From: Candidatus Bathyarchaeota archaeon
Lineage (GTDB): Archaea; Thermoproteota; Bathyarchaeia; Bathyarchaeales; Bathycorpusculaceae
Assembly: GCA_963717465.1 (NCBI GenBank)
Contig: OY970340.1
Span: forward strand, 512,001-576,000
Reading direction: 5' to 3'
Length of the DNA: 64,000 nucleotides
Each line of letters opens with the position of its first letter. Position 1 is the first letter of the stretch. The notes beneath the pieces were generated by a model that worked only from the letters and a program-made list of their open reading frames with translations, searched no databases and was not told the DNA's origin. Made by a program: the position numbers and the translations under genes. Shown here piece after piece: positions 2,009-55,199 of the stretch.

Positions 2009-2017
2009 TCTCTCACA

Positions 2018-2242: not shown

Positions 2243-2306
2243 GCTGGAATTAAAACGTTGCGAAAGCAAAAAGCAACACGTACAAACACCGCAAACAGAA
2301 GTTTGG

Positions 2307-30696: not shown

Positions 30697-30744
30697 CCAT
30701 GGCACCACCCTGTTACCCTGAGGTGGTGCCATGGCGTTTTTTTT
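30697..30744. terminator. perfect 13-bp inverted repeat with a T8 tract on the + strand, between the two archaellins
   Basis: CCATGGCACCACC-N12-GGTGGTGCCATGG followed by CGTTTTTTTT. Confidence 0.6.
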
Positions 30745-30772
30745 AACCGAACGTGCCCTTGTGTTATCTTCT

Positions 30773-31651: not shown

Positions 31652-31655
31652 CTTA

Positions 31656-31685
31656 TACCACTTCTACTACTTCTACCACTTCTAC
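31656..31685. repeat. three tandem 9-bp repeats upstream of the zinc-ribbon archaellin
   Basis: TACCACTTC-TACTACTTC-TACCACTTC-TAC, ending 4 nt before the TTG start. Confidence 0.75.
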
Positions 31686-31850
31686 TTATAGTAGTTAGTA
31701 TTAAGTATTAAGATATACTATATTTAAACTTATTGCAAATAAGTATTCAAAAAACTAACCGTACTACACAAATACAAAATCATAATAGAAATCCATAACT
31801 AAAAAAATGATGGAAAAATAAGAACTGAAAAACTAAAACAAAATCAGAAC

Positions 31851-33419: not shown

Positions 33420-35074
33420 GGAATTTCCATCCCTCTTATTCTACGTTGCACTTCCCAAATTCCTAAACTGCGTGCAGTGGCCATTGTTTTGGCTACATCA
33501 GTGTATGAAGGAAAGTTTTCTGCGAGGAAACTAAGCACTTCAGCCCTTGCTTGCATTTCATCATAAATATCTTTGATTTTGTCTTTACTCCAGCCTCTAA
33601 ATGCAAGAACTTTATTCTCTAAATGGAAGCTGGAACCCATAAATCGGAATTGATCTAAGTTTTCATCATAAATAAAGATTGGTAAATAGTTTAATTTTCC
33701 CCCATCGGGTTCATAACCGATAACTTCGTTAATAGAGGTGCATCTTCTGATAAATTTCGTTCCTTTCTCAATTCTAGCCTGGAAAATAACTAGATTTAAG
33801 CCGTCTATGTGACTTTTTGGGACGTCAATCGGGTATGACGTCAGCCTTTGAAATAGTTGTCCAAGAGAACCTGCGTGCATTGTAGATAGCACAGGGTGTC
33901 CAGTTTCAACAGCTTGAAAAGCTACTTTCCCTTCTTCACCTCGTAATTCACCAACGATTATGTAGTCAGGTCTTTGTCTTAAGGCCGCTTTTAGCAGGTC
34001 GAACATCGTAACCTGAACTCCAGTGTGCAACCTTGTAACTTCTCTGATCCAGTTTTTGTGGAGGAGATTAATTTCCGGTGTTTCTTCTATGCTGATAATT
34101 TTTGAATCCTGACCGATAAAGGATGTTAAGGCATTCAAAGTTGTCGTTTTGCCAGAGGCTGTCTCACCGCATACTAATGCTGAAACGCCTACCTCAAAGA
34201 GCATCCAAAGATAGGCTGCTAATTCAGCGGTGAACGTGTGCCACTTGATTAACTGCGCGACTGAAATCGGCTCTGTTGGAAACTTCCTTACTGTAAAGTT
34301 GCTGCCTCTTAGGCTTATATCTTCGCCGAAGACTATGTTTAATCTTGAACCATCATCCAAATGAATATCAATTATCGGGTGAGTATAACTTAGAACTTTT
34401 CCGTGCCGTTCCGCTATATTTCTTAGCAACTTGTTAATGGCTTCTTGAGAAAGATCAAGGCTTGTTTCCAAATTGCCAAAAGTGTTGTGGTAAACAAAGA
34501 TTTTACCTGCTCCAGGGATGCTTATGTCTTCAAGCCCTGGATCTGCCAGAAACCCGTCTAAGAAGCCATTTCCGATTTTTTCTCGTAAAAAATGGTAAAG
34601 CAGATTAGTTTCATCAGTTCCTTTTGGAATTTTAACATTCCCCTTCTTTAAGGCGCGCCTAAAGAGCGTAGCTAAAATCTGTGTTTTTTTTTCACCGTAA
34701 TCTTTGCTTTCTACGAGTCTTGCAACTTCTTCTTCAATTGCAGTTAACAATTTTTGGTCTGGCTTTGGCGGTTCGATAATATTGTACCTGTTGCCTGTTT
34801 CATCCATGACCACGTTTGCGTAAATGCCTAAACCTAACGGATAAATTATGTTAACAAACTTTTTGTACGTTATAGCGCTAGCATCACGCGTGTACTCGGG
34901 CGGATCAGGCATTCCTTCAACATAAGATTTCAGGTAAGGGTGCTTTTGCATGGCAGTTGTTAAACTATCGTATACCTCGCGGTTGAATAAGCCTAAATCC
35001 ACGTCTTCCAATTTCTTGTGTCTAACGCGATATATCTTTTTCAAAATTTTTTTAGCTGGAGCCAAAACCGACAT
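33410..35074 (-). CDS. arlI: archaellum assembly/motor ATPase
   Basis: 'GETASGKTT', 'ALRQRPDYIIVGELRG', 'TGHPVLSTMHA'. Confidence 0.93.
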   Translation of the reverse strand: MSVLAPAKKILKKIYRVRHKKLEDVDLGLFNREVYDSLTTAMQKHPYLKSYVEGMPDPPEYTRDASAITYKKFVNIIYPLGLGIYANVVMDETGNRYNIIEPPKPDQKLLTAIEEEVARLVESKDYGEKKTQILATLFRRALKKGNVKIPKGTDETNLLYHFLREKIGNGFLDGFLADPGLEDISIPGAGKIFVYHNTFGNLETSLDLSQEAINKLLRNIAERHGKVLSYTHPIIDIHLDDGSRLNIVFGEDISLRGSNFTVRKFPTEPISVAQLIKWHTFTAELAAYLWMLFEVGVSALVCGETASGKTTTLNALTSFIGQDSKIISIEETPEINLLHKNWIREVTRLHTGVQVTMFDLLKAALRQRPDYIIVGELRGEEGKVAFQAVETGHPVLSTMHAGSLGQLFQRLTSYPIDVPKSHIDGLNLVIFQARIEKGTKFIRRCTSINEVIGYEPDGGKLNYLPIFIYDENLDQFRFMGSSFHLENKVLAFRGWSKDKIKDIYDEMQARAEVLSFLAENFPSYTDVAKTMATARSLGIWEVQRRIRGMEIPWS

Positions 35075-35086
35075 GCATGCACCTCC

Positions 35087-35788
35087 CTAGAGTTTTACGC
35101 CGCTAAGAGGCATTACTCGCAAGCCGATCTGAGAGCTAACTGCAAGAGTTATCGAGCTCTTTCTTTCACCGTTTACTCCCCAAAGCTTTATAGTTCTAAG
35201 TAATTTGACGTCTATTCCGGATATGCAAGCGTTTTCTAATACAAAGTAGGCGTCAGAGTTTGCTCTAAGTTTCATTATGGATTCTTCTGAAAGAAATTCA
35301 GGGTGAAACGTAATAACAACGGTCTTGTTATATGCGACTAGATTTTTTATTTTGGTGATGAACGTTAAGAACTCGTATAACGGTGTATCCATAGTTAAGA
35401 CGCTTAGGCTGTCGATAACAACAACATCATAATCGTGTTTTTTTGATTCAAGAAATTTCGTTATTATCATTAAAAAAAGAGCACTCTTTGACTTGCTCCA
35501 TCTTCCGCCCTCAACATGCAAAGGGAAAATTTTGAGGTAACCGTATAAATAGTAATTGTACGGGTCAAGCCTCACTGATTCCATCATTGAAAGATATTCC
35601 ATAGCCCTTGCTTCGCTTGAAATCACGTAAACTCTAGATTGATTCTTAAGCATCGCATGAACTATTTGCTGAACGAACACGGTTTTCCCAGAGCCATGAT
35701 CGCCTTCAACAAGCATTAGGCTGGGCGTCGGTATTCCACCACCGAGGTCCCTGTCCAATTCTGGAATGCCTAACTTCACTACTTTCAT
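35087..35788 (-). CDS. arlH: archaellum KaiC-like nucleotide-binding protein
   Basis: 'LGGGIP', 'EGDHGSGKT', 'IDSLS'. Confidence 0.92.
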   Translation of the reverse strand: MKVVKLGIPELDRDLGGGIPTPSLMLVEGDHGSGKTVFVQQIVHAMLKNQSRVYVISSEARAMEYLSMMESVRLDPYNYYLYGYLKIFPLHVEGGRWSKSKSALFLMIITKFLESKKHDYDVVVIDSLSVLTMDTPLYEFLTFITKIKNLVAYNKTVVITFHPEFLSEESIMKLRANSDAYFVLENACISGIDVKLLRTIKLWGVNGERKSSITLAVSSQIGLRVMPLSGVKL

Positions 35789-36312
35789 TGTGGACCAGCA
35801 GTCTCCCCTGTTGCTGTCACGCCATAGTAAGAAGCAAAGATTATGGATACAATGTCTTGGGATAAGATTTCTGGGGCTCCATCTGGAATACTCAGGGTAA
35901 TGTTGGCTTGTTCATCTGGATTTAAAACATTATGAGTTACTATGTTAAAGGTGGTGTTGGTACCTGAAATTCCGATTTCTGTTATTTGGTATCCTTCGAT
36001 TGCGTAAGAATTCACTTCTGAGCTGTTACCGTAGGTCAAGATTATTGTATTCCAATTGTAGCCGCTGGAATTTTGAAGGAATATTGTTGTTGACCCAATA
36101 TTCGTTACTGTAATGTTGCATGATGTGGCGCTTACTGAATTAACGGTCAATTGTATGTGTGTATTGAGTTTTTCTTGCTGAGTAGTTGCATAACCATTTG
36201 CTGTTACTGAGAGGTCATTGATACTTGTGAAAAAGACTGCTGAAACTCCGGTAAAGAACACCAAAAAGCCTATGAGCACTACAAACGAAGCTATCGCAAC
36301 AGAAAAACCCAT
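35785..36312 (-). CDS. arlF: archaellum stator protein ArlF-like
   Basis: 'MGFSVAIA' N-terminal TM, 'VTNIGST', 'LNPDE'; position directly before arlH. Confidence 0.7.
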   Translation of the reverse strand: MGFSVAIASFVVLIGFLVFFTGVSAVFFTSINDLSVTANGYATTQQEKLNTHIQLTVNSVSATSCNITVTNIGSTTIFLQNSSGYNWNTIILTYGNSSEVNSYAIEGYQITEIGISGTNTTFNIVTHNVLNPDEQANITLSIPDGAPEILSQDIVSIIFASYYGVTATGETAGPQ

Positions 36313-36321
36313 CTTTCAGCC

Positions 36322-36813
36322 TCATGTTAACGTTGAGAAGAGATAATCATTTCCAATTCCATTAGCAGGTACTACTTTAACTTCAAAAGTTGTGCCGTTA
36401 ATTGCCTCGGTTGGGTAAGCATATATGATTGCAGTTTCTCGCGGTTCCCATACTCCGTTCCCATTTGTGTCTACAATGTAGAACTTTCCGCTTCCTGCCA
36501 AAGCGTTTGAAGCATAATTATAGAGTTGGGCGCTGCCATAATTGCCAACGTAAACGTCCATATCCGCGTAATCGGTTATTGGAAGACTGCCTGTGTTCTT
36601 GGCGTATACTACAAAAACTGGTTGGCTCGTATTCGCTGTGGCATAAATTACTTGTACCTGCGTGTCCACGTTGTTTTTTGCGTTGTTAGCTTCTTGTGTC
36701 ACTTCATTCTGCACAATATTGCCAGTATAGAAGGCACAAGCAACAAAAGCACTTGCTAATATTACAGCACCTATAACCATAATTATGTGGGTTATGGTGA
36801 CTGAGAAGCCCAT
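36322..36813 (-). CDS. arlG: archaellum stator protein ArlG-like
   Basis: 'THIIMVIGAVILAS', 'YAKNTGS', 'DVYVG', 'WEPRET'. Confidence 0.75.
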   Translation of the reverse strand: MGFSVTITHIIMVIGAVILASAFVACAFYTGNIVQNEVTQEANNAKNNVDTQVQVIYATANTSQPVFVVYAKNTGSLPITDYADMDVYVGNYGSAQLYNYASNALAGSGKFYIVDTNGNGVWEPRETAIIYAYPTEAINGTTFEVKVVPANGIGNDYLFSTLT

Positions 36814-37502
36814 TTGTTGGTGCCTCTATTCGACTTCGGCTTTTTGTTGATCTGGTGTTCTGTCACTGCAACGAGTGTTTCCATATCAGCTGGGTCTAAG
36901 TCACTTTTTGTCAATGCAGCCGCTTTGTATAAGAATAACAGCAAATGTCCTTTACCTAAGCCTATTGACCTAAACTTTTCACACGTAACTGCTAAAGAAT
37001 AAATCAACTCGTTAGCTTGTGGCGCTACATAACCCATTAACTCGCATAAACGAGCTAATTCTCGAATATCGCCGGCAGCTAATCCAACGTCAAAAAGATC
37101 CCAAATCCAGTTAATATACTTCGACGCTACAATCGGCTTGACCACCGCTGACTGGGCAGGTTTGCTAGTTTCCTCGATCTGCGGAATCAAAGGTTCCAGC
37201 TTTTTGTCATCATTAGTTCTTGGTTTTCCCAAACTAATGGACTTTATACCCGGCGGGAGACTTTGGTTTTGAACATCTTCTTTCTCACTTGATATTGATT
37301 TCAAAACATTGAACGGATTCTCTATCTCAGTAACAGTAGCGCGTATGTTTGAAATGGATTTCTTGAGGTCACTAACTGAAGATTGAATTTCATTCGATAA
37401 TTCATCAATATCTGTTTTTAGCTCAACAATTTGGTTTTTTTCTTTGGCAGAGTTTGAAAAACTACCATTCTTTGCCTTATTATTATTTTCAACACTTTGC
37501 AT
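36792..37502 (-). CDS. probable ArlC/D/E-like switch protein
   Basis: Coiled coil ending in 'TEIENPFN' (ArlC-like), a low-complexity linker, then 'WIWDL...LCELMGYV' resembling the ArlD/E domain; first gene of the arl operon. Confidence 0.55.
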   Translation of the reverse strand: MQSVENNNKAKNGSFSNSAKEKNQIVELKTDIDELSNEIQSSVSDLKKSISNIRATVTEIENPFNVLKSISSEKEDVQNQSLPPGIKSISLGKPRTNDDKKLEPLIPQIEETSKPAQSAVVKPIVASKYINWIWDLFDVGLAAGDIRELARLCELMGYVAPQANELIYSLAVTCEKFRSIGLGKGHLLLFLYKAAALTKSDLDPADMETLVAVTEHQINKKPKSNRGTNKWASQSP

Positions 37503-37743
37503 AGCGTCGATATCATTATTTGCCAAACAGATTTCTCCTATGTAGTGATAATTTAAGTCGTTAGCGGTCATTATCTTAGGCAAAACCCTATATAATTTAT
37601 GAAGCCTGAATCAATATTGAGCCTGCAGCACGAATAAAAACGCAAAAGTAAAGAACACAACCCTGCTTAGATAGCCGTCCGTATCCGTGAACTTTAAATG
37701 CATGAGTCCAGAAAGTACACATCGAACAATAGGCGCTGATTAA

Positions 37744-38350: not shown

Positions 38351-39445
38351 ATGGAGAGGAAACAAGTGCCCAAAAACTATACTTACACTGAAGCAGGTGT
38401 AAATCGCAGCAAACGTGCAGAATCCAAAAAAGAATTAAAAACGCTGTTTGAGACCTACAAGCAGAGTTACTTCGGCGATGTTTTGCGTTTGCCATACGGT
38501 AACGTTTTTCCCATCGGCGCGAACACTTTCTTGGATTTAGTAATCGAGGGTGTAGGTACAAAAGTTCTCATGGCACAACTGGCAGAGAAGTATGACACCA
38601 TTGGCATTGATGCTGTTGCAATGGCTGTTAATGATGTAATACGTTCAGGTGCTAAACCGCTCGCCATCGCAGATAACATTCATGCTAAAGCCAGTGACCC
38701 TGCACTGGTGAAAGCGTGGCTGCAGGGTATCGCTAAGGGAGCTATTGAATCTGAATGTCCAGTTACAGGCGGAGAAATCGGCGACGTAGCTGAAATAATT
38801 AATGGAATTCGTGAAAACGTTGGTTTTGACCTGGTTGTCTCCTCCATAGGGCAAGTAAGAAGAAAAGATGTCATAACGGGAGAGAACATCAAAGTCGGTG
38901 ACCCGATTGTTGGTTTAGCAAGCAGTGGTGTGCATAGTAACGGCATAACCCTAGTGAGAAAGATTCTTTTTAAACAGTGGGGTGGAAAATACGAGCCAAC
39001 GGATGTCCCCCAAGGATTAGAAAGACAGGTTGCATTGGAAGTTCTTGAGCCAACAAGAATCTACGTGAAAGAACTTTTAGCATTAGCTAGAGAAGTAAAG
39101 ATTAAAGCAGCAGTACACATAACAGGCGATGCTTACAATAAATTCTTAAACTTGAGCAATTATTCGCCAGGCATAGGTTTCGAGTTCAGCAATTTTAAAC
39201 CGCAACCAGTTTTTGGCTTAATCCAAAGGACAGCAGAGGAATTGGGATACAATATCTCAGATGAGGAGATGTTCAAAACCTTCAACATGGGATGGGGCTT
39301 TGCCGTAATAGTCGACAAAAAGGACACGGAGAAAGCTGTAAACACTCTTGAAGAAGTCCATGCGGCGCCTGAAATCATCGGAAAAATCACTAAAACAGGT
39401 AAAGTGGAAGTGCACTTCAACAATAAAAAGATGATTTTAACCTAA
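38351..39445 (+). CDS. purM: phosphoribosylformylglycinamidine cyclo-ligase (AIR synthetase)
   Basis: 'YTEAGV', 'EGVGTK', 'IGIDAVAMAVND', 'SSGVHSNG', 'HITG', 'EMFKTFNMG'. Confidence 0.95.
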   Translation: MERKQVPKNYTYTEAGVNRSKRAESKKELKTLFETYKQSYFGDVLRLPYGNVFPIGANTFLDLVIEGVGTKVLMAQLAEKYDTIGIDAVAMAVNDVIRSGAKPLAIADNIHAKASDPALVKAWLQGIAKGAIESECPVTGGEIGDVAEIINGIRENVGFDLVVSSIGQVRRKDVITGENIKVGDPIVGLASSGVHSNGITLVRKILFKQWGGKYEPTDVPQGLERQVALEVLEPTRIYVKELLALAREVKIKAAVHITGDAYNKFLNLSNYSPGIGFEFSNFKPQPVFGLIQRTAEELGYNISDEEMFKTFNMGWGFAVIVDKKDTEKAVNTLEEVHAAPEIIGKITKTGKVEVHFNNKKMILT

Positions 39446-39502
39446 TCTTTGCTGTCTTTTTGATGAAAGCGTTTAAATCTTCTTCATCATAATTTTTAGC
39501 CC

Positions 39503-39754
39503 ATGAAATACGCTGCGAAAATCGAAGTTAGCCTAAAACCTGGCCATAGTAACCCAGAAGGCGAAACAACTGCACATTTACTAAAAGAATTAGGATACAG
39601 TGTAAAGGCTGTGGATGTAAGCAAAGTCTACATAGTTACCCTTGAAGCCTCAAACCGTGTGGAAGCCAAAGCCAAAGCGGAAGAGATGAGCAAACGGTTA
39701 CTGGCTAACCCGACTAAAGACAATTACTCGATAATTGTTGAGGAGCAAAAATGA
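39503..39754 (+). CDS. purS: FGAM synthase subunit PurS
   Basis: 'LKPGHSNPEG', 'LLANP', 83 aa. Confidence 0.92.
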   Translation: MKYAAKIEVSLKPGHSNPEGETTAHLLKELGYSVKAVDVSKVYIVTLEASNRVEAKAKAEEMSKRLLANPTKDNYSIIVEEQK

Positions 39755-42144
39755 ACACGAGCCTCATCTTTCGCGCAAAAAGACAAGTTGCTTTTTGAGG
39801 TAGTCATTGGCAGAAGCAAATGATGAGCAGCTTGTTGAAGTAAACAATGAGTTAAGTTTAGGTTTTAGCATTCACGAACTTAAAAACATTCAAGAGTATT
39901 TCAAGAAAGAGAACCGAAACGCCACAGACGTGGAGCTTCAAACCATCAGTCAAACTTGGTCAGAACACTGCTACCACAAAACCTTCAAGGGAAAAGTCAA
40001 AGTAGGCAACAAAGAAATTGATAGCCTCTTTAAAACTTACATTGCCAAGGCAACAAAAGAAATCAATCCGCATTGGTGCTTTAGTGTTTTTGAAGACAAT
40101 GCAGGAATAATCCGCTTTGACAAAGGCTTTGGAATAGCGGCAAAAGTTGAAACGCACAATCATCCCTCAGCTGTTGAACCTTTCGGTGGAGCAGCCACAG
40201 GCACAGGCGGCGTAATACGGGACATTCTTGGAGTATGGGCTGACCCAATCGCATGCACGGACGTGCTGGGTTTTGGACCTTTAGATTACGATTACCAAAA
40301 ACTGCCTGCAGGAATAAAACATCCTAAATACGTTTACAGGGGCGTTGTTTCAGGCATAGGCACTTATGGAAACAACATGGGCATTCCAACAGTTAACGGA
40401 GCAGTATATTTTGATGAGAGTTACACAGGGAACGTCATTGTTTACTGTGGATGCGTAGGACTTCTGCCGCTTGAAAAATACATTAAAAATGCGAAGCCAA
40501 ACCACATCGTTGTTTTAGCTGGTGGAAAAACAGGCAGAGACGGAATCCACGGCGTAACCTTCGCTTCAGCTGAATTAACAGAGAAATCAGAAGTAGTTTC
40601 TCGTCCTGCTGTGCAAATTGCGGATCCAATAGAGGAAGAAAAACTTAAACGTGCAATAATTGAGATTCGAGACCGTAGGATTAGGCTCTGCAACAACAGA
40701 TCTTGGCGGAGGAGGATTATCCTCAGCTCTTGGGGAAACAGCTGAAAAATACAATTGTGGAACAACCATTGACCTGGCGAAGATTCCGTTGAAGTATCAG
40801 GGTTTAGCACCTTGGGAAATTTACATTTCAGAATCTCAAGAAAGGATGCTGCTGACTGTTTCACCTGAAAACTTGGATGCTGTAATGGCGGTTTTCGAAA
40901 AAGAAGATGTACAAGCAACTGCAATAGGCACGTTGACAACTGAGCGCCGTTTAAAACTGAAATATCAGCAGCGAAGTTGTTGCGGATTTGGAAATGGATT
41001 TTCTTTTTAACCCAATTAAAACCACGAAAACCGCAGTAATCGAAAACGTCTGTTTCACTGAACCCGAATTTTCTGAGCCTACAAACTTAACTCAGACCCT
41101 ACTGCAATTGATTTCTGCTCCAAACATTGCCAGCAAAGAAAGCGTAATTCGCAGTTACGACCATGAAGTGAAGGGAAACACGTTACTTAAACCGTTGCAG
41201 GGCAAGTACGCTGGACCAAACGATGCAGCCGTGCTAAAACCACTTGACAGTTCATTGAAAGGCTTGGTTATTTCTTGCGGTATGAACCCGAATTACGGCA
41301 AAATCGACGCTTACTGGATGGCAGCTTCAGCCCTCGATGAGGCAGTGAGAAATAATGTTGCGGTTGGCGGCAGAAGAATTGCCTTGCTGGATAATTTCGT
41401 ATGGGGAAATCCTGAGAAACCAGAACGATTAGGCTCACTTGTAAGAGCCTGTGAAGCTTGTTATGATTTTGCCAAGATATTTAAGAACCCCCTTCATATC
41501 CGGCAAGGATAGCCTCTACAACGAATCCCCGCTTGGTCCAGTAACGCCAACATTACTGATAACAGCAATCGGTGTAATTCCGAACATTCAATCAACCGTT
41601 TCCATGGATCTGAAAGCACCTGGCAACGCACTCTACATAATAGGTGAAACATACAATGAGCTAGGCGGCTCCGAATACTACAAGCAAAAAGGCTTTCTCG
41701 GCGCAACAGTACCCAAAGGTACATGGTGGCAAAGCAAAAAAAACCTTTAAAGCGGTAACTAAAGCCATCGATTACGGCTTAATCAAGTCTTGCCATGACT
41801 TATCTGAAGGTGGATTAGCAGTTGCAGCTGCTGAGATGGCTTTTGCAGGCGGCTACGGATTAGAACTGGATTTAAAAAAGGTTCCAGGTAAGGGTTTTGA
41901 TAGAAATGATTTTGTTCTCTTTTCAGAATCAAACAGCCGTTTCCTGCTTGAAGTGGCAGAAAAGGAGAAAAAAGATTTTGAAGCCTTGATGAAAGGGAAA
42001 GTCTGCGTTCAAATCGGGAAAGTAACAAGAGAAGAAAAGCTTCTCATTCATGGGTTGGATGGATCGGTTGTCGTAGATGCTTCATTATCTAGCTTGATTG
42101 ATAGTTGGAAGAAAACATTAAGCAGCGAGGCGCAGCCAAGTTGA
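39751..42144 (+). CDS. purL: FGAM synthase subunit PurL; several frameshifts
   Basis: 'WSEHCYHK', '[20 protein letters not shown]', 'SESQERM', 'YDHEV', '[10 protein letters not shown]', 'HDLSEGG', 'LFSESNSRF' spread over consecutive frames. Confidence 0.93.
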
Positions 42145-42958
42145 AGCGGGAAGAAATTAAAATTTGCGTTCTACGAGTTGGAGGAACGAACTGTGACGCA
42201 GAAACCCAGCGGGCCATCCAAGAGTTTGGTGTGCAAGCCCAAGTTTTGCATGTTAACGAGTTAATAAAAAAGCCAAACCTTCTAGATTTTCATGCTTTGG
42301 TTTTTCCAGGCGGCTTCTCTTTCGGCGATTACGTGCGGTCAGGCGTGATTTTTGCCAGAATGCTTTCAGCAAAATTGGGAAAGGAAATGAACACTTTTGT
42401 CGATGAAGGCAGACCGATTCTGGGAATTTGCAACGGTTTTCAAATACTTGTTGAATACGGGTTACTTCCAGGCTTTGAAGGCATGAGCGATTACCCCGAA
42501 GCTTCGCTGGCCAAACAACCAGCCAAGGCTACAAATGCCAATGGATTCACCTTAGAAGCGAAAACAAGGGAAAATGCGTCTTTTCAAGCAAAATCCCAAC
42601 AGGCAAAATTCTACGAATGCCGATTGCACACGGTGAAGGGCGACTGCTGTTTCCAAAAGAGAAAGAAGAGAAAATGTTGGCTAAACTCATTGATGAGGAC
42701 ATGCTGGTGTTCCGTTACTGCGGTGAAAACGGTGAACCTGCAGAGGGGAAATACCCAATTAATCCAAACGGCTCATTCAGTGACATCGCTGGAATATGCA
42801 ATAAGGAAGGTAACATTTTCGGTTTGATGCCGCATCCTGAAAGAGCAATGTACTGGTGGCAACAACCCGACTGGACACGGCAAAAAAGAATGGCGCAGTT
42901 CGGTGATGGAAAACTGGTTTTTGAAAGTCTGATTGAAAATTTAGTGAAAAAGCCGTAA
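42141..42958 (+). CDS. purQ: FGAM synthase glutaminase subunit PurQ; frameshift near 42510-42620
   Basis: 'GTNCD', 'PGGFSFGD', 'LGICNGFQ', 'AHGEG', 'MPHPER'. Confidence 0.93.
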
Positions 42959-43853
42959 GTCTTCAGCTTTAGGCAAACCTTCGCGGGCTCCCATTTTCAT
43001 CACTGACCTTGAAGCAACAAAATTGCCCAGTCGCCCACATTCCTGCAGATTTTTCTCTTTAAGTAAACCATAGAGGAAGCCAGCGTTAAAGGCGTCACCA
43101 GCTCCGGTTGTATCAACAACCTTAACTTTGAATGACTCTATCATGAAGCGTTCATGCCCATCTGTAACGTAAGCAGCCATTGCTGCCAAGTTTAACGGCG
43201 ACAATTTTAACGCCTTTATCGATCATGAAGTCTGCACTTCTACTGTAGTCGTGTTCGCCCGTTAAAAGTTCAAGTTCAAACGCGTTTGGCAGCAGAAGAT
43301 AAGTCTTGTTTATAATCTCCTCTAAAGCCTCCATGCCTTTTCTCGCGTAAACTGCACCAGGGTCAAAACTTACTTTCACGCTATTGGGAAGGGCAGTAAG
43401 GAGTTTTTTTTGTGTTTGCATTGATTTTTCTCCGACAAAAGAGGTTAAATGGATAAACTTTGATTTGAAACCATAATCTTGGTTTATCTCTTCAAGGGAT
43501 ATCGTGTCGTTAACGCCTGAGTTAATGTACAGGGCTCTTGCACCTTTCTTGTCAACGAAGCCGAGCACTGAACCACTTTTTCCCGTGGCATGAATTATTC
43601 CGTTTGTGTTGACGCCTTCTTTTTCGAAGCCTTTGCAGAGAAATTCGCCTTCTCTATCGTCTCCGACTTTGCCTATGAAGCCTGCTTTGCAGCCAAGCCT
43701 TGCAAGTCCAACAATCGTGTTTGCTGCTGAGCCTCCGCATGCTTCAACGTAATCTTCAATGAAGCTTTCCTCTTCTGCTTTCGCGATACGGTTTACTTTG
43801 AAGAGCGTGTCAACGTTGAGTGCCCCAAAGCCTACAACATCAAAATTTGTCAT
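42941..43853 (-). CDS. PfkB/ribokinase-family sugar or nucleoside kinase (EhaT-like); one frameshift near 43180
   Basis: 'GALNVD', '[15 protein letters not shown]', 'GKVGDD', 'FDPG', 'PNAFE', '[12 protein letters not shown]'. Confidence 0.9.
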
Positions 43854-44761
43854 GGAAACAACTCACGCAATGATATTATGTAATCCCCCAGTTTACCGCC
43901 GTAATTGCCAGCAGAAACCTTGACAACTCCATCAACACCTAAAACAGCTTGAATACCTACTTTCGTAGCTTTTTTTACTGCATCCAAAGAAACTCCGTTT
44001 AACACTATCTCCGCAATGTAACCCACGCCTTTTGGAACTTGAGATTCACCAGCTAACCGTTCTCGGAGGCTGGGACAATACGGGTGATTAGTTGTAGGAC
44101 CTATCTGCGGGAAATGTGTTTCAGGCTTTGAGCCGGCAGAGCAAACATCAAAAGGAGTAACTACATCATTCACCTTGCGGATTGCCGCTAACGCTTTTTG
44201 AGAGGCTTTTTTGAAGGATTCTTTTGAAGTGCACATTATCCAAAAGTTGCCGCCCATAACGCCCCTTGCATACCCTAAGTATCGTTCAATGATGAAGTCT
44301 GGAACCATTAGTGGAACAACGATTACTTCTCTGCCATAACGGTTTTCAACCCATTCGTAACCGTCTCCGCAGTGGCCCACACGCTCCATCATATCCAGTT
44401 TTCCCTCAGGCGAAGGCAAAGCGTCAAAAACAGCGGTGAAAGGCTTGACAAGTATATCTTGACGAATTCGATAGGAGAGTTCAGCTTCAAACTTTTTCAG
44501 TGATTCAGCGAATGTTTTTTTTGGGTTTATTGCACCCCAGAACTGCACTAAGGCGCCTTTACGTTTATCAGGCGTTTCCTTTTCGCTTAGCCACCGTTCT
44601 ATTCCACCTTCAACTCTGCCGATAACAACCGATGGTGTTGCAGTTGAATCCTCAGCAGCCTGCCTAAGGGTCTGTTCATCATCCGCCGTTACAATAAACC
44701 TGCAATATATTCCAGCAAACGCCTCAGCATAAGTATCCTCAACTAAGGGTTTTTTAACCAT
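43850..44761 (-). CDS. ftr: formylmethanofuran:H4MPT formyltransferase-like protein (divergent Ftr, EhaS type)
   Basis: Intact 303-aa ORF: 'EDTYAEAF', 'ETPD', 'GDGYE', 'GGNF', 'TN..YCP.L', 'EIVLNG', '[10 protein letters not shown]'. Confidence 0.92.
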
Positions 44762-45834
44762 TCATCCAAGCCTCCCAATTGCTACTCCGCGAACTTTCTT
44801 GCGAAATTCGCTGCTCTCTTTAACTAACGATTCCATATTTTGAGGAGTTACTATTTGAACTTTGGGAAAAACAGCCAATTCTTTCAGCAAAGTTTCACCT
44901 ATGCCTAAGCTGCTTGAGCAGTTTAGGAGACCATGATTTGATTGCATCCAACGTTTTGGCTTTTCCCAATTTACAGAAAATCTCCATGATAACAGCAGTC
45001 ACAAGGTTACTTTCAGATAAAACGGCGATTTGAGCGTTTTTTACTGCGTAACCGTTACCGTTAAAGGAAACCGTTAATCCATCATGACTCATTCACAAGT
45101 TTGAAGGCTTCAACATCAGTTATGCTGTCGCCAACATACAATACATCCTCTAATTTAGCTTCCAAGCGTTTTACTGCGTCTTGGATGGCTTCAGCTTTCT
45201 GCTGTCCACCAACAGTTGTCACCTCAGCAAAAATTCTTCCAACACTCATTCTTGGGATTTGCACCCAGAAAATCTCGTCAAGCCGCCTCAAGGTTTCTTG
45301 GTCTTTTTGGGAAAAGTCCTTGATGGATTTTGCTTCTTTGGGAATTTCGATTAGTGGCATTTGAGCAATTTCCAAAGCAATCATCTGCAAATCGTCGTTT
45401 CTTCTTCCGTTGTTGCTTGGTATTTGTTAAGGCAGAGTTTAGTGCAGTAAGTGTTCTTGTATGGAAACGTTAAAGCCTTACACAGAGGCTTTAGGTAATG
45501 CTCGTAACTTGTACTGACAATGAATGAGTCAGAAATCTCTTGAATATGACTCATGGTTTTTTTGCTGTCTGCAATCAAAACGATGTGTTCTGCAGAGAAA
45601 TCTTCCATCTGTTTATCGCTTACTTTGGTAAGCCTTGAAAAAGGGCAAAATCAACTTTAAAGTGCTGCCTGCAGTGTAACCTGGTTTTTGCAGTACATCT
45701 GCAAGTACATCATCATACTTGCTTATGTTAGTAAATAATTTTTCGCCTTCTGGAATAAAATGTGCTGCTAACTCGAATGCATTATCATTCTTGGATATTG
45801 GGCCTTCACAATCGGATACGAAGATGCGCTTCAC
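44762..45834 (-). CDS. HAD-like hydrolase (EhaR-like); about 4 frameshifts
   Basis: Starts at GTG 45834 with '[19 protein letters not shown]' (HAD motif I variant); also 'YDDVL', 'IVSTSYEHY' (motif II), 'VGGQQKA' (motif III), 'YVGDSITD' (motif IV), 'SFNGNGYAV', 'RKKVRG..IGRLG'. Confidence 0.8.
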
Positions 45835-45836
45835 GC

Positions 45837-47246
45837 TTAGCGCCTCAAATGCTCCATGTGGCTTACACTTTTTGCAATATGTGATTTTGAAGCTATGTCT
45901 GATCGGTTCCAAAGTGCGCCGCCAGTGATAGCTTTGGCGCCTTCTTGAGAGATTTGGCGTGCTTCCTCGATGGTTTTGCCTACGCCTAGAACGCCGACGG
46001 TTCTTGACTTCAGAGTCCAGTTCTTGCCATCGTTTGTTTCCATTGAGCCAGGGTAAATGCGGATTCTATCACCGTATTTACTTGTCAATGCGTAAGCTTT
46101 TGAGAGGTCAATTGGAGTATGTAACTGCTGATTTATCCACTTTGTCTGGATAAACTTCTTTATAGCCGCCGTAGTCTGATGGCACTTTGTAAGTTAACAC
46201 GGTTGCTGCATTCTCAACTTGCAGACTGGTCAGGTTGCCCTCAATCATTTTGAAGCAGACATCGACAAAATCATCCTTTATTATTGGCAGTATATTGATG
46301 ATTTCAGGGTCTCCTGGGCGACTGTTGTTTTCAAGAACTTTAATGCCTTTGCCAGTATGCATGAAGGCAAGATACAAGGGCACGCCGCGTAAAGCTGAAG
46401 CGTCCTTAATTTGCGATTGCCATCCATTAAAGATTTTTTAGCTAACTCAATTTCATGTTTTCGTTCTGCTTTAGTTAGGAAAGGCAACTTGCCATCTGCA
46501 TCTTTGTAGGAGCCCATTCCTCCAGTGTTTGGGCCCTTATCATCATCAAAAGCCCGTTTATAATCGCGAGTATCAGGTAACGGAATAAAGTGTTTTCCGT
46601 CGCAAAAAGCCATGAAGCTGGATTCTTCTCCATCTACTTTTTCCTCGATTATCACTGAGCCGTACTGGAAGTTTGATAGAGAAATACTCAAAAAGTTCTT
46701 CTCTTGTGGTAAAATGGTCGCCCCAAACGCCGACGCCTTTTCCTGCAGCAGGCTTATCAGGTTTCACTACTGCTTGGTTGTCCAGTTCATCAAGCCATTT
46801 ATAGACGTCTTTTTTGACTTCATCTTTGCCTTTGTAATCGTTTGGGTTGAAAATCTTGAAACGCGGGTTTGCTTCTGGCGCTATCTCTTGAAACAATAAA
46901 CGTTGCTTTACCTTGCTTTCTTCTATGGCGTATTCTTGCTTGGGACAAATTACAGGTATTCCAGTTTGCTTTTCGACGAGGTCTCTTATGCCGTCGATTA
47001 TTGGTTTTTCAGAACCAACTAGCGCAAAATCAATGTTGCCTTGTTTTCTTTTGCAAACTTGCAAATTTGAGCAACATCCAAGTTGGGGATAACAACATGT
47101 TTAACGGCTTTTTCAACGTTGAATGGGTTACGTTGTTTATCGGCAATGTACAAGTCTACTTTGTATTTTTGGCTTCTTGCAAGTGCATCAACCATGGCAG
47201 CTTCTCTTGACCCATAGGAAACAACTAACACGCCAATCTTTTCCAT
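45837..47246 (-). CDS. purD: phosphoribosylamine-glycine ligase (GAR synthetase); about 4 frameshifts
   Basis: 'GSREAA', 'IEESK', '[11 protein letters not shown]', 'IEEKVDGEE', '[18 protein letters not shown]', '[10 protein letters not shown]', 'RSDI'. Confidence 0.93.
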
Positions 47247-47289
47247 AAGAGACAACCTGTACCTGCATAGTTTAGCATGAACGCTTAAT

Positions 47290-48789
47290 TTACTTTGTCA
47301 CGGTTCGGGATTCGGGGGTTTCATCCATTTCGTAAATTCGTGTTTTTTCTTGGTAGCCGTTTTCGAATTTCTTTTTCATTTCATCAGCCATTTGCTGTGC
47401 GAGGGGTGTTGGGTACTTGCCAGTTATGCAAGCTAAGCATAATTGGTCGCGGGTTTTGCCTGTTGAACGTATTAGCGCCTCAATGGATTGGTAGCAAACG
47501 TTGTCTGCGCCTATAATTTTGGCAATTTCTTGAGCGTTATGTTTTGAACCGACGAGTTGTCCGTAAGTTGACATGTCAATTCCGTAGAAGCAGGGACCGA
47601 TTATTCTGGGAAAAGTCACGAAAACATGTACTTTCTTAGCGCCTGAACGACGCAGTTTATCAATTATAACTTTTGTTGTATCTCCACGAACGATGCTGTC
47701 TTCAGTTACTATTACACGTTTACCGTCAACTTTTGAACCTAAAATGTTAATTTTCTTATCAATCGTTAAGAAACGCTCATTGTTTAATAGTATGAAGGCT
47801 CGCTCAGTTACGTACCTGTGCCGCCTTGACGCTCGCTCCCATCGCAGTCCCGAGGCTTCATGTACCCCCATAGCGGGATCATCGCCGGTTTCAGGTATTG
47901 AAAGTATAATATCTCCATCTTTGGCAATTTCAGGATACTCTTTCACTATGTTTCGTCCGAAGTCTTCTCGGATTTCATACACATATTTTCCATTGAATTT
48001 TGAATCAGGTCTTGCAAAATATGCATATTCAAACGCGCAGAAAGCTTCTCGGGGATTCTTGATTAATTGTTCCCGTTTAAAGCCGTCTTTTGTAACTGTT
48101 ACAAGTTCACCAGGGTTAAGCTCGAAGTCTCGTACAAGACTATTCATGTCTAAACTTACTGTTTCAGAGGAAAAAGCAAAAGTTGCCCCGTCAAGTCCAT
48201 GTCCAGCACATAAGGGTTTTATTCCATGTGGATCTTTGAAGGCAAAGAATTCGCCTTCGCCTGTTATTCCAGTTACGGAGAATGCGCCGTCTAAGACTTC
48301 CATGCAGGATTGAACGGCAGATTTTAGGTCTTTTCCCTCTTTAAGCCCTAAGAGAAGTTTGTGGCAGAGTATGTCCGAATCGCATGTGTAATTAAAGTCT
48401 GGGAAGTTTTGGTCCATTTCTTTTTTTAATGGCGCAGTATTAACTATGTTGCCGTTGAATGATAACGCGATTTTTATTTTACCTTCTGAGGCTGTAACTG
48501 GCTGAGTCCCTTTAATCAGGGAGGATTCATCGCATTTACCTGACGTTGTGTATCGAACATTGCCGATGCCTATGGATCCTGGCAAGCGCCCGAACCATTC
48601 ATTTATTGCACTGGTTTTTATTTTTGGAACTAAATCGAGGTTTTTGTAAATGTAAAATTGCTTGTTGTTGTATGTTAGAAAGCCGTGTGATTGGTGACCT
48701 CTGTGATTTTGGGCTCTTAGCCCCCAATAAACGTATGGAAAAACAGGTATGTTTTCGAAGTTTATTGCACCAAAGATACCGCAGCCTAT
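47290..48789 (-). CDS. purF: amidophosphoribosyltransferase; no canonical start codon before the catalytic Cys
   Basis: The frame extends 66 codons upstream of the ORF-track start to 'CGIFG...QNHRG'. Also 'FNGNIVN', 'CAFEYAYFARPDS', 'EDSIVRGDT', 'PCFYGID', 'CLACITGKYP'. Confidence 0.95.
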   Translation of the reverse strand: MGCGIFGAINFENIPVFPYVYWGLRAQNHRGHQSHGFLTYNNKQFYIYKNLDLVPKIKTSAINEWFGRLPGSIGIGNVRYTTSGKCDESSLIKGTQPVTASEGKIKIALSFNGNIVNTAPLKKEMDQNFPDFNYTCDSDILCHKLLLGLKEGKDLKSAVQSCMEVLDGAFSVTGITGEGEFFAFKDPHGIKPLCAGHGLDGATFAFSSETVSLDMNSLVRDFELNPGELVTVTKDGFKREQLIKNPREAFCAFEYAYFARPDSKFNGKYVYEIREDFGRNIVKEYPEIAKDGDIILSIPETGDDPAMGVHEASGLRWERASRRHRYVTERAFILLNNERFLTIDKKINILGSKVDGKRVIVTEDSIVRGDTTKVIIDKLRRSGAKKVHVFVTFPRIIGPCFYGIDMSTYGQLVGSKHNAQEIAKIIGADNVCYQSIEALIRSTGKTRDQLCLACITGKYPTPLAQQMADEMKKKFENGYQEKTRIYEMDETPESRTVTK

Positions 48790-52107: not shown

Positions 52108-53688
52108 ATGCCATTTGGAAAAAAGAAAAATGAAGAAGAACAAGAAAAAGAGAAAATATCCGAAGAAGAATTAATAGGCTATTTAGGTATTCAAGGTGCC
52201 CGTGTACCCGAAGGGTACATACAGATCGAAAGTTACCCACTTAAACCGCCTTTCTCTTACGCTTGGATATTCCAAGATGAGTCTGACGGAAGCATGTTTT
52301 ATGTCGTGGACGAATTAACACTGTCTGTTGAGGAAAGGGACGCCTATAAGCGGTTAAAAAACATTTTAGAATATGAATTAAAAGCCCCCAAAATAGATGA
52401 GACTCTTGATGATTCATTCCATAGACAATTACCTCAAATAATGAAGGATCATGAGAAAGTCCTTTCTGGAATCAATCAAATAGGCATTAAGAAAATTACT
52501 TACTATCTCGAAAGGGATCTTATAGGATTTGGGAAAATAGACGCTTTGTTTTCCGACCCCTACATAGAAGACATCAGCTGCATAGGAGTTAATAAGCCAG
52601 TTTACCTTTGGCACAGAAAATATGAAAATGCTCGAACCAACATAATTTTCATAGAAGAAGAATACTTGGATGATTTCGTAACAAGGATAGTACACCGACA
52701 AGGCAAACATGTTAGCATTGCACACCCAATCGTGGACGTAACTCTTCCAGGTAAACACAGACTCGCAGTATCCTTTGGAAAAGAAACAACCCCAGCTGGA
52801 ACAAGCTTCACAATAAGAAAATTCAGAGAAGACCCATTAACAATCGTAGATTTAATTATGAATGAAACAATCGATGAAACAATCGCTGCCTACCTTTGGA
52901 TGCTTATGGAAAGCAAAATGTCCGCAATGATTGTTGGCCCCACAGGAGCAGGAAAAACAACAGCACTAAACGCGATTGCCTGCCTAATAAAACCAGACTA
53001 CAAAATCATCTCAGTCGAAGAAGTCGCTGAAATCAATCTTCCACAAGAAAACTGGGTTTCAACCATCGCCAGACAAGGATTTGGAGGAGACAAAGAAGGA
53101 GAAGTCTCACTTTACGAACTTATCAAATCAGCAGTCAGGCACCGACCTGCACTCATCCTGATAGGCGAGGTTAGAGGTGAAGAAGCATATGTCTTATTCC
53201 AAGCCTTAGCTACAGGTCACGGTGGAATCTGCACCATGCACGCTGAAGATGTTGAAACAGCCATAAAACGTCTGAACCAGCCACCAATGAATATTCCTCA
53301 AGGAGTCATTCCGCTTATGAACTGTGTGATAGTCGTCAAACAAAATAAAAACCCAAATTTCATTGCAATAGACAAGAAAGCTTCAAACAGAAAATTTGTT
53401 AGAATCTCAGAAATAAACCCGAGCGGAGCAATACATGATGTCTTCCAGTGGAACCCATCTTCCGAAACATTCACGCAGAACCTGGAGCAGAGTTATCTGC
53501 TTTCAAGAATAGCTAAAAACCTTGATGTTCCAATTGGAGTCGTTCTTCAAGAGATTGAAAGACGAGAAAAAATCTTGCTGAAGATGATTGAAAAGAACAT
53601 GCGCGACTTCCGAAGTGTACACAAAGCGCTAAACAGCACGGTAATATTGCCAGAATTAGAGATCAAAGAAACAGAAACGGAGCAATAA
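52108..53688 (+). CDS. type II/IV secretion ATPase (PilB/TadA-like)
   Basis: 'GPTGAGKTT', 'VRHRPALILIGEVRGEE', 'TGHGGICTMHA'. Confidence 0.93.
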   Translation: MPFGKKKNEEEQEKEKISEEELIGYLGIQGARVPEGYIQIESYPLKPPFSYAWIFQDESDGSMFYVVDELTLSVEERDAYKRLKNILEYELKAPKIDETLDDSFHRQLPQIMKDHEKVLSGINQIGIKKITYYLERDLIGFGKIDALFSDPYIEDISCIGVNKPVYLWHRKYENARTNIIFIEEEYLDDFVTRIVHRQGKHVSIAHPIVDVTLPGKHRLAVSFGKETTPAGTSFTIRKFREDPLTIVDLIMNETIDETIAAYLWMLMESKMSAMIVGPTGAGKTTALNAIACLIKPDYKIISVEEVAEINLPQENWVSTIARQGFGGDKEGEVSLYELIKSAVRHRPALILIGEVRGEEAYVLFQALATGHGGICTMHAEDVETAIKRLNQPPMNIPQGVIPLMNCVIVVKQNKNPNFIAIDKKASNRKFVRISEINPSGAIHDVFQWNPSSETFTQNLEQSYLLSRIAKNLDVPIGVVLQEIERREKILLKMIEKNMRDFRSVHKALNSTVILPELEIKETETEQ

Positions 53689-53691
53689 CAA

Positions 53692-55199
53692 TTGAATAGT
53701 CCTTCAGGAGCACCCAAAGGTAAAGTTTCAAGTTTACTCTCAAAAGCAACCAGCGAAGAGAAAGAAAAAATTGAACACGAGTTACCGTTTGCTGTTATGA
53801 TTTTCACTTTAATGGCCGCAAGCGGCATCTCACCATACGATAGCTGGAAGAAATTGCGCAAACTATCATTCCTTCCAAACTTCAAAAAAGAAGCAGAGGA
53901 AATGATTAGACAAGTTGAAGTTTTAGGAAAAGACCCCTTGACAGTCATGCGCCAAAGAGCAGAAAAAACAAATTCAAAAATATACAGGAATTTTCTCGGA
54001 GGGTTTGCTTCATCAATTAGAAGCGGCGGAAAAACAGTGGATTACTTAAGAAGCGAGTTAAAAGAGATTTTTGAACTTAGACACGGAGAATTAACACGAT
54101 CGATTGAGAAAATAGCAACATTGGTTGAAGCCTACACTGTAATGTTAATCGTTGTACTATGCGTCTATATCTTATTTGTTGTCTTCTCAGCAACAGGCTC
54201 ATTAGACGTTTTAACCGGTTCCGCGATTTCTTTAACACCAGCAACATCTTACATTATAGCTTTTGTTCTTCTGCCTGTAATGTCTTTAATCTTCATTTTA
54301 GTTGCACATAACATGCAAAAAAGCGCTTTCAGCGATCTATCGGACCTTTACAAGAAAGCACTAATTATACTTGTGCCAGTTGGAATTGTGATAGCAGTCT
54401 TCGCCATGGTACCCGAGCTTGACAAATTCACTTGGACCGATTGGTTTACCAGAAATTGTTACAATCGGACTAGTTGTTGCTTCTGTGATCCCTGCAATAC
54501 AATATCATAAAATCTCAAAAATCAACTACAATGCAGAAGATGCAGTTCCACACTTCATACGAGAAGTAACCGAATCACATAAAATTGGATTGTCTCCTGA
54601 GAAAAGCATCATTCAAGCAACAAAACGCAAAGATTACGGACCGTTTTCCAGATACCTCGACTTAATGCGAAGCCAAATTGAATGGGGCATTCCATTGAAA
54701 AAAACATTAACTAACATCCGCAAGGAGATCAGAAGCTGGTTTGTAACATTAAACTTCGCAATGATGATTGAAACCATGGAAATCGGCGGAAATTCCACAG
54801 AGTCACTAGAAATACTCTCTGAATACAGTGAAAAAGAACGAGAAGTTCAAATTAACAGGCGAGCAACTTTAAAGCCATACATTCTTTTAGCAGTCATATG
54901 GAGCATTCTAATTGCTGTTACCACCAACATAGTTGCTTTAACCACAATGATGATGAATAACGTAGCAGGCATGGACGCAACCGACTTTGCATCTTCAGCA
55001 AATTTATTAGTGGAAAATCAAATGGAGTGTATTTTCAGTCGGAATAATTCTTCAATGCTGGATTTCAGGATTCTTTATTGGAAAAATTAGCGAAGGAAAC
55101 TTTGGGGCAGGCTTCAAGCATTCAGCTTTACTGGCGGCTGTAGCGTACATTTCATTGATAGTATCCAAGTATGTTCTGGCAGGAATGTTTGGATTGTAA
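53692..55199 (+). CDS. type II secretion F / TadC-like platform protein; about 2 frameshifts
   Basis: 'IEHELPFA', 'EDAVPHFIREV..S.KIGLS', 'QIEWG', 'GKISEGNFGAGFKH'. Confidence 0.85.

Follow-up and report, generated by a model that had tools for sequence, protein, structure and literature searches.

An EhaR-, Ftr- and PfkB-family gene trio in a purine operon as a candidate for the missing glycinamide ribonucleotide formylation step of a Bathyarchaeon

How does an archaeon with neither a recognizable PurN nor PurT formylate glycinamide ribonucleotide (GAR) to formylglycinamide ribonucleotide (FGAR), the third step of de novo purine synthesis? The question is raised by a purine gene cluster in a 64,000-nucleotide stretch of Candidatus Bathyarchaeota archaeon (assembly GCA_963717465.1, contig OY970340.1, positions 512,001 to 576,000 of the forward strand; hereafter the window, numbered from its first letter). 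In this cluster purF and purD are followed by genes for a haloacid dehalogenase (HAD)-like protein, a paralogue of the archaeal formyltransferase Ftr, here called FtrL, and a PfkB-family kinase. From gene identities, orthology, synteny, fusions and phyletic complementarity we infer that this trio is a fairly probable candidate for the missing activity; the reaction itself, the formyl donor and the roles of the HAD protein and the kinase are put forward below as proposals.

The purine gene cluster and its gap at step 3

The ORF (open reading frame) list, Pfam and NCBIfam scans and tblastn with intact orthologues delineated two converging gene sets, purM-purS-purL-purQ on the forward strand and purF-purD-HAD-FtrL-PfkB on the reverse strand. 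In the forward set, purM (aminoimidazole ribonucleotide synthetase, 38351..39445) is intact, encodes 364 amino acids and is 75% identical over its full length to purM of a relative (locus L020), whose product carries the Pfam domains AIRS and AIRS_C; purS (39503..39754, 83 amino acids) is likewise intact and 84% identical to the L020 purS, which has the Pfam domain PurS. The gene purL (formylglycinamidine ribonucleotide synthase II, 39765..42144) runs through frames 3, 1, 2, 3 and 1 with at least four frameshifts, its tblastn pieces being 72-83% identical to the 793-amino-acid L020 purL, and purQ (the glutaminase of the same synthase, 42105..42958) has one frameshift near 42523 according to tblastn and frameshift-aware protein-to-DNA alignment.

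On the reverse strand, purF (amidophosphoribosyltransferase, 47290..~48792) is an open frame that matches TIGR01134 at 4e-84. Its catalytic Cys (GCGIFG) is in frame with no ATG, GTG or TTG upstream of it, and residues 6-499 of a 503-amino-acid PurF (L023) align by tblastn to 48792-47308 in a single frame; the start either uses a non-standard codon or was lost through assembly error. Next comes purD (GAR synthetase, 45837..47255), with matches to TIGR00877 and to GARS_N, GARS_A and GARS_C spread over five pieces and with four frameshifts (near 47038, 46680, 46438 and 46122), followed by the gene for the HAD-IB-like protein (44762..45834, ~357 amino acids, five frameshifts), the intact FtrL gene (43850..44761, 303 amino acids, PF01913 and PF02741) and the PfkB-family kinase gene (42941..43853), which has one frameshift near 43172 and is 70% identical to the intact 303-amino-acid L020 orthologue. 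The shifts in purD, the HAD gene and the kinase gene were likewise placed by frameshift-aware alignment. The purD stop (45837-45839) is separated from the HAD start at 45834 by a 2-nucleotide gap, the HAD stop (44762-44764) abuts the FtrL start at 44761 with no gap, and the FtrL stop and PfkB start overlap as ATGA at 43850-43853. An earlier sequence-only reading of this DNA had described the same gene content, order and three junctions, all of which agree with the scans and coordinates given here; what it had passed over is that in the assembly just four of the nine genes, purM, purS, purF and FtrL, read through without a shift, the other five not being open frames.

The genome is available as one closed contig of 3,053,889 bases with 88% marker completeness. 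Genome-wide, Formyl_trans_N (PF00551), the family of PurN, had no match at all, and the best match to the PurT model TIGR01142 reached 37 bits against a cut-off of 502, so that the absence of purN and purT asserted in the sequence-only reading extends from the cluster to the whole genome. A second cluster near 2.51 Mb holds purE, purC and two purP-like genes, and purB lies near 2.095 Mb. With purF, purD, purL/S/Q and purM encoded in the window and the rest of the genome contributing purE, purC, purP-like genes and purB, step 3 is the gap, and among the pathway steps examined it appears to be the only one that lacks a known enzyme (IMP, i.e., inosine monophosphate, cyclohydrolase was not searched for). 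The genome also encodes FwdA (802 bits), Mch (399 bits) and a second, canonical Ftr at genome position 1,037,705-1,038,128; formyl-methanofuran and formyl-tetrahydromethanopterin (formyl-H4MPT) are therefore plausible metabolites in this organism.

The three families and their partners elsewhere

The trio is the EhaR/EhaS/EhaT set of energy-converting hydrogenase A (Eha), here placed in a purine operon. This assignment is made because intact orthologues of the HAD protein bear the JGI (Joint Genome Institute) label "energy-converting hydrogenase A subunit R", because the sections of Kaster et al. (2011; PMC3087415) drawn on here report earlier annotations of Methanothermobacter EhaS and EhaT as Ftr and ribokinase, respectively, and because the same trio is found in Methanobacterium oryzae, directly after genes for DUF1959, nickel-iron (NiFe) small and large subunits and two polyferredoxins. 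The same three families stand in the same order as the final three genes of the Methanothermobacter eha operon; in the window, by contrast, they follow purF-purD and face purM-purS-purL-purQ, with no eha or other hydrogenase genes nearby and with archaellum and pilus genes further out. The hydrogenase-subunit reading, as published in those sections, leaves the pur-linked position unexplained. While the sequence-only reading had cast the trio as a gap-filler, which agrees with our view, it had overlooked that these genes form a set already known, yet unexplained.

FtrL possesses both FTR lobes (PF01913 at 1.9e-43, PF02741 at 7.2e-54) and belongs to the Ftr family, scoring 335 bits on NF002554 against a cut-off of 297. 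It is 52-81% identical to members of its own clade and 35-40% identical to canonical Ftr, and a maximum-likelihood tree of 23 sequences splits FtrL (13 rows) from canonical Ftr (10 rows) with 100/100 support; lying in a separate clade, it is not an orthologue of the canonical Ftr of methanogenesis and the Wood-Ljungdahl pathway. The FtrL clade unites the pur-linked Bathyarchaeia copies with EhaS of three Methanobacteriales (M. oryzae, Methanobrevibacter and Methanovirga) and with the second Ftr copies of ANME-1 (anaerobic methanotrophic archaea group 1), a Methanopyri metagenome-assembled genome (MAG) and the genomes G150 and G208. Exactly two Ftr genes were found in 10 of the 10 EhaR-positive genomes examined singly, and the window genome also has two. 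Canonical Ftr (PDB 1FTR, 2FHJ, 1M5H and 1M5S; FhcD, 6S6Y) has two FTR domains and a similar length in common with FtrL, but differs in forming the other paralogue clade, of which this genome holds its copy elsewhere, and in its acceptor, which is H4MPT or methanofuran, whereas that proposed for FtrL is GAR or its riboside.

The two clades have 31 invariant columns in common, among them that of E251, which aligns with the catalytic Glu of Ftr. Residues H130, C131, C177, W75, W174, R100 and G221-P222-T223 are invariant specifically in FtrL, and C207 and C229 are also invariant in an 18-row FtrL alignment; H130, C131 and C177 are not conserved in the canonical clade, while position 207 is Cys in the Bathyarchaeial canonical copies as well. 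Judging from this conservation, H130, C131, C177, C207 and C229 may form a metal or redox site. In the Halobacteriota-type genomes G208 and G150 (L155 and L156), FtrL is 73% identical to that of the window and nested within the Bathyarchaeia FtrL group (100/97), a placement that hints at lateral transfer; in G208 the FtrL gene adjoins a guaA-like gene. A complex prediction for FtrL with EhaR, for which controls were not run, returned a score of 0.00, a value that bears on binding in neither direction.

The pieces of the HAD gene in the window retain DCEGP, STSY, K and GDSITD together with a C-terminal VRGxxIGRLG. HAD motifs I-IV are invariant in 16 typical EhaR members (D-x-E-G-P, S-T-S-Y, Lys and G-D-S-I-T-D, with VRGxxIGxLG at the extreme C-terminus), and the family is small, with 620 representatives at E<=1e-3 among 1.84 billion. 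An AlphaFold (AF2) model of the L020 orthologue (predicted local distance difference test, pLDDT, 94.7) has as its top PDB match in Foldseek 1Y8A, AF1437 of Archaeoglobus fulgidus (template modelling, TM, scores 0.81/0.92; 25% identity), followed by phosphoserine phosphatases (SerB), ThrH and MtnX. Motifs I-IV and a Rossmannoid core with a C1 cap place EhaR among the HAD-IB-like proteins, with weak sequence-family scores (TIGR01488 31.8 bits, cut-off 45). AF1437, the best structural match to the model, is a structural-genomics entry without an assigned function and is shorter than EhaR (313 residues in the chain versus ~357 amino acids); its source genus, Archaeoglobus, is reported to lack PurN and PurT. 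One branch of the family has lost catalytic motifs (P0333, P0347, P0352, P0359, P0360, P0367, P0376, P0383 and P0389), and its taxon-named members, P0347, P0352, P0360 and P0376, are all from Methanomassiliicoccales. Because the nucleophile Asp and motif IV are gone, this branch is probably not a phosphatase. The third protein matches PF00294 in two pieces (1e-32 and 8e-21) and contains DTTGAGDAF, the C-terminal DTxGAGD anion-hole motif, which places it in the PfkB/ribokinase family. Its highest scores are with ribokinase and ribose-1-phosphate kinases; the best NCBIfam match of the intact L020 orthologue is ribokinase (167 bits, cut-off 300), with no equivalog cut-off reached.

The linkage of the trio to purine genes extends well beyond the window. 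In five of five relatives, from five families, purF-purD-EhaR-FtrL is contiguous, with PfkB directly next in four and purC-purB upstream in one. Additionally, a scan of one genome per species with the EhaR motif-IV pattern GDSITD-x16-FNGN provided a biased sample of 80 loci with flanks, which were sorted by BLAST against reference sequences and partly checked with Pfam. Among the 80 loci listed, purD-EhaR-FtrL occurs in 28 (26 of these with PfkB), and EhaR-FtrL without purD in 11 (10 with PfkB), all Methanobacteriales-type; 12 have a PurN-like protein beside EhaR (11 with PfkB) and are mostly bacterial, one has an ATP-grasp protein in that place, and five have only purD nearby. The single-strand order EhaR-FtrL-PfkB of the window, which is that of an EhaR-EhaS-EhaT module, is the same in 10 Methanobacteriales-type loci listed. 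Synteny with pur genes in relatives, proposed in the sequence-only reading as a check on its idea, is thus present both in the five relatives and in the 28 loci. One contig labelled Bacteroidaceae (L054) carries a Methanobrevibacter-type EhaR-FtrL-PfkB with the 53-55% identity seen in Methanobrevibacter loci, and is probably a mis-binned archaeal contig.

The version with a PurN-like protein is found in Thermodesulfobacteriota, other "Deltaproteobacteria", Dehalococcoidia, Thermoleophilia, Fervidibacter and Bipolaricaulota, as well as at two archaeal loci. Four of these proteins scanned with Pfam score 44-51 bits on PF00551, and the Asn-His-Asp triad is kept in 10 of 10 aligned. In a Thermoleophilia locus (L045) the order is purL-purF-purM-PfkB-PurN-like-EhaR-purH, such that the module occupies the classical purN slot. 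Two bacterial genomes, one each from Thermoleophilia and Thermodesulfobacteriota, have as their Formyl_trans_N matches the PurN-like protein (44-46 bits) and one stronger match, which is probably Fmt in both; neither genome has a PurT. The formyltransferase of the bacterial module is a relative of PurN (TIGR00639/PF00551), with the triad and the gene slot of PurN, and the net reaction that we propose for the module is the same as that of PurN, the fold of which is unrelated to that of FtrL. The PurN-like partners differ from canonical PurN in scoring 44-53 bits against the TIGR00639 cut-off of 150, in their length of ~270-290 amino acids, in another N-terminal loop (GWFSTGRDxAAR) and two insertions, and in that they always occur with EhaR and usually with PfkB.

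Fusions tie EhaR to both kinds of partner. A 599-amino-acid protein (P0326) joins an N-terminal PurN-like domain to EhaR, and two others (P0316 and P0334; 899 and 961 amino acids) join an ATP-grasp protein to EhaR, with a short, weak PurT-motif match of 33 bits. The ATP-grasp part of such fusions measures 540-590 amino acids and the fusions 899-970, and two small conserved ORFs precede them; the metagenome context of two (L183 and L184) contains no pur or PfkB genes. PurT (TIGR01142) provides a folate-independent route to FGAR that costs one adenosine triphosphate (ATP), and the ATP-grasp protein that a few lineages have next to EhaR or fused to it is distantly PurT-like; PurT itself is absent from the window genome and from every EhaR-positive genome sampled.

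The distribution of EhaR was compared with those of PurN and PurT in phylum samples of genomes at least 85% complete, and the resulting counts describe a pattern rather than a statistic, related genomes not being independent. All 121 Methanobacteriota (the phylum of M. oryzae) have EhaR and none has PurT or a PF00551 match. In the Halobacteriota-type phylum of ANME-1 (n = 151), where a PurT threshold of our own choice (at least 436 bits, below the curated 502) was applied, EhaR was found in 67 genomes, PurN in 76 and PurT in 12: 59 have EhaR only, 68 PurN without EhaR, 10 PurT only, 8 EhaR and PurN, none EhaR and PurT, and 6 none of the three. Within this sample, 52 of the 67 EhaR-positive genomes have a second Ftr copy, versus 12 of the 84 EhaR-negative ones. 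Among 151 Thermoproteota, EhaR occurs in 18 genomes, all of them among the 21 Bathyarchaeia; canonical PurN is present in 54 and a PurT-like gene in 36, neither in any of the 18 EhaR-positive genomes, two of which have a weak PurN-like match; of the three Bathyarchaeia without EhaR, two have a PurT-like gene. All six genomes in the sample of the Methanopyri phylum have EhaR. Methanococcales possess both Eha and PurT. The anti-correlation that the sequence-only reading had anticipated is therefore largely borne out in three phylum samples, with the exception of the eight genomes that combine EhaR and canonical PurN.

Published surveys point to the same lineages. The parts of two papers on which we draw report GAR formyltransferase as missing from Archaeoglobi, Methanobacteria and M. 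kandleri (Brown, 2011; PMC3261824) and from ANME-1 (Chadwick, 2022; PMC9012536), the latter still calling the GAR-formylating enzyme unidentified in 2022. That the lineages reported there to lack the enzyme are those carrying the module supports the module as that enzyme. In the literature outside subscription journals and supplements, we found no paper that assigns GAR formylation to it.

Proposed reaction and alternative explanations

We consider it reasonably likely, on comparative grounds, that the EhaR-FtrL-PfkB module formylates GAR to FGAR where PurN and PurT are missing. GAR is proposed as the substrate because of the positions in pur operons and the absence of PurN and PurT. FtrL, with the catalytic core that it has in common with Ftr, would be the formyl-transferring component and would probably draw the formyl group from formyl-methanofuran or N5-formyl-H4MPT, a choice of donor suggested by the FwdA, Mch and canonical Ftr genes of this genome. 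EhaR and the kinase would be a conserved pair that works alongside an Ftr-like formyltransferase in archaea, a divergent PurN-like one in many bacteria or an ATP-grasp one in a few lineages. Because this pair stays constant while the fold of the formyltransferase changes, and because EhaR is fused to two of these folds, what the versions share would be the acceptor or product rather than the donor, and the pair would act on that side, most plausibly at its ribose-5-phosphate end. The claim of the sequence-only reading that the trio fills the purN/purT gap is thereby strengthened by the purF-purD-trio operons, the PurN-like version in a bacterial pur operon, the EhaR fusions and the near-complementarity, and weakened by the eight genomes with both EhaR and PurN.

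Within this proposal, EhaR might dephosphorylate GAR, the riboside be formylated and PfkB rephosphorylate it to FGAR at one ATP per transfer, an order of events that the sequence-only reading had also entertained and that we regard as doubtful. It is consistent with the fact that most EhaR family members retain the full set of four HAD catalytic motifs, with the modelled fold of EhaR, which is nearest to the small-substrate phosphatases SerB, ThrH and MtnX, with the likeness of PfkB to ribokinase and ribose-1-phosphate kinases and its conserved DTxGAGD, and with the constancy of the EhaR-PfkB pair whichever the formyltransferase. Such a route has precedents: in flavin mononucleotide synthesis, a HAD phosphatase and riboflavin kinase carry out a dephosphorylation and then a rephosphorylation, and Salmonella has a PfkB aminoimidazole-riboside kinase. 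The riboside route would, however, entail an ATP cost that folate-dependent versions should not need, it is at odds with the catalytically dead EhaR relatives, and its kinase specific to a formylated riboside is pure conjecture. A tentative extension, which we would not press, is that step 3 has a third, modular solution across archaea and bacteria, in which GAR would pass via its riboside through EhaR and EhaT while the formyltransferase is interchangeable: Ftr-like with formyl-methanofuran or formyl-H4MPT, PurN-like with folate, and ATP-grasp with formate. Were this so, formyl transfer would be ATP-coupled and the place of EhaRST on the eha operon would be explained, with Eha replacing the formyl-methanofuran drained into purines. 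Eha is reported, in the 2012 work of Lie et al., to refill formyl-methanofuran drawn off for biosynthesis; if the module formylates GAR, the eha linkage of EhaR/S/T would make sense.

Several observations weigh against assigning GAR formylation to the module. The evidence for it is wholly associative, and the evolutionary events are fewer than the phylum counts suggest. Neither canonical PurN nor canonical PurT requires a phosphatase or a kinase, leaving the need for EhaR and PfkB unexplained, and 9 of 44 EhaR representatives, a Methanomassiliicoccales-type sub-branch, have neither the nucleophile Asp nor motif IV. The ATP-grasp partner is just weakly PurT-like and its genomic context uninformative. 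Among the 80 loci listed, 16 have EhaR alone and 7 EhaR and PfkB only. Furthermore, 8 of the 67 EhaR-positive Halobacteriota-type genomes also have canonical PurN (179-224 bits); of the five of these that were examined, four have EhaR-PfkB without FtrL and one (G217) has the full EhaR-PfkB-FtrL trio in addition to PurN, so that the module and PurN are not strictly mutually exclusive. In M. thermautotrophicus, ehaS and ehaT are co-transcribed with ehaA-R and were read as hydrogenase subunits in the sections of Kaster et al. (2011; PMC3087415) drawn on here, and in the window three of the five genes from purF to PfkB are frameshifted. Some of these points would fit a module that does something else and merely lies beside pur genes, the true GAR formyltransferase then being some other enzyme; ribose or ribose-phosphate salvage to phosphoribosyl pyrophosphate, formylation of another amine, or a step of H4MPT or methanofuran synthesis are examples, which even taken together we judge unlikely. 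The 23 of the 80 listed loci that have EhaR, with or without PfkB, and no adjacent formyltransferase, the eight genomes with EhaR and PurN, and the resemblance of PfkB to ribokinase and ribose-1-phosphate kinases would be expected in that case. Not expected in that case are a bacterial purM-...-purH operon with the module exactly where purN belongs, fusions of EhaR to formyltransferase-type domains, and a distribution that, across three phylum samples, nearly complements those of PurN and PurT. Formylation of 5-aminoimidazole-4-carboxamide ribonucleotide is rejected as the role, since PurP in this genome and PurH in L045 account for that step. To our knowledge, neither H4MPT nor methanofuran synthesis is known from the bacteria that carry the PurN-like version, and a function in the synthesis of these cofactors was rejected as the principal explanation in view of the bacterial pur-operon version.

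It seems to us barely credible that EhaR/S/T serve the energy-converting hydrogenase Eha as accessory subunits, a role proposed for them in Methanothermobacter, and are present here as a relic. The co-transcription in M. thermautotrophicus and the position of the M. oryzae trio directly behind NiFe subunits and polyferredoxins are what such a role would predict, whereas in the window and in 28 of the 80 listed loci the flanking genes are pur and not hydrogenase genes, the bacterial version with its PurN-like partner lies inside a pur operon, and EhaR/S/T belong to soluble enzyme families with intact catalytic motifs. A different objection concerns this genome alone: the cluster has at least 15 frameshifts across purL, purQ, the PfkB gene, the HAD gene and purD within ~9 kb, and marker completeness is just 88% although the genome is closed, as might be seen if the cluster were decaying into pseudogenes in an organism that salvages purines. 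We find this highly improbable. At the locus of the canonical Ftr (L006, genome positions 1,036,371-1,039,628), Ftr is in three pieces and the unrelated radical-SAM and aRF1-like neighbours are split too; stop-to-stop ORFs of at least 150 amino acids cover 0.73 of the genome versus 0.85-0.92 in seven 20-kb loci of relatives, a measure that detects genome-wide fragmentation and by which assembly error and decay look alike. The N-terminal piece of the HAD protein has counterparts in 18 of 20 relatives, mostly open frames of 360-448 amino acids, the cluster pieces keep 52-83% identity to their orthologues and every catalytic motif, and the same pattern of fragmentation is seen at other MAG loci (L034, L053 and L093). 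Because the genes of relatives are intact, the pieces keep their catalytic motifs and splits occur genome-wide, the frameshifts are probably assembly or sequencing errors. In one of those MAG loci, from a fragmented Bathyarchaeota genome (L093, 8387-10207), FtrL and PfkB form a single 607-amino-acid ORF; in view of the ATGA overlap and the numerous further breaks at this locus, the joined frame is probably an artefact of an indel.

Neighbouring genes and biological significance

Outside the purine cluster, the window contains an archaellum-type operon on the reverse strand (29916-37583) with four archaeal flagellin genes, an FlaI-like T2SSE ATPase and a KaiC-like FlaH identified by Pfam, between which lies a 522-amino-acid ORF without a Pfam match. 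A CheD gene is found at the window end (63181-63816, forward strand), and together with the operon it suggests the presence of motility and chemotaxis genes in a Bathyarchaeon. By family scan, a second T2SSE ATPase gene is followed on the forward strand by a T2SSF membrane protein gene (52108-55090), the latter as two overlapping ORFs (53692-54510 and 54419-55090) that are probably split by another frameshift. Near the other end, a PIN-domain gene beside a MazE-like antitoxin gene (1634-2362, reverse strand, family scan) forms a probable toxin-antitoxin pair, next to which lies a gene for class I lysyl-tRNA synthetase (2506-4107).

Should the EhaR-FtrL-PfkB module prove to formylate GAR, a conflict in older labelling data might also be eased: the part of Brown (2011; PMC3261824) used here calls inconsistent the finding that purine C8 derives from acetate C2 in M. 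stadtmanae and does not in M. smithii, and a formyl donor bound to H4MPT or methanofuran would reconcile the two. The three-gene candidate makes the missing GAR formylation described in that part of the paper directly testable. If the proposal is correct, EhaR, EhaS and EhaT would gain a function, and the methanofuran and H4MPT one-carbon pool would be tied to nucleotide synthesis. Automatic labels of thousands of "Ftr", "EhaR" and "ribokinase" genes would be corrected, and metabolic models of methanogens, methanotrophs and Bathyarchaeia would change.

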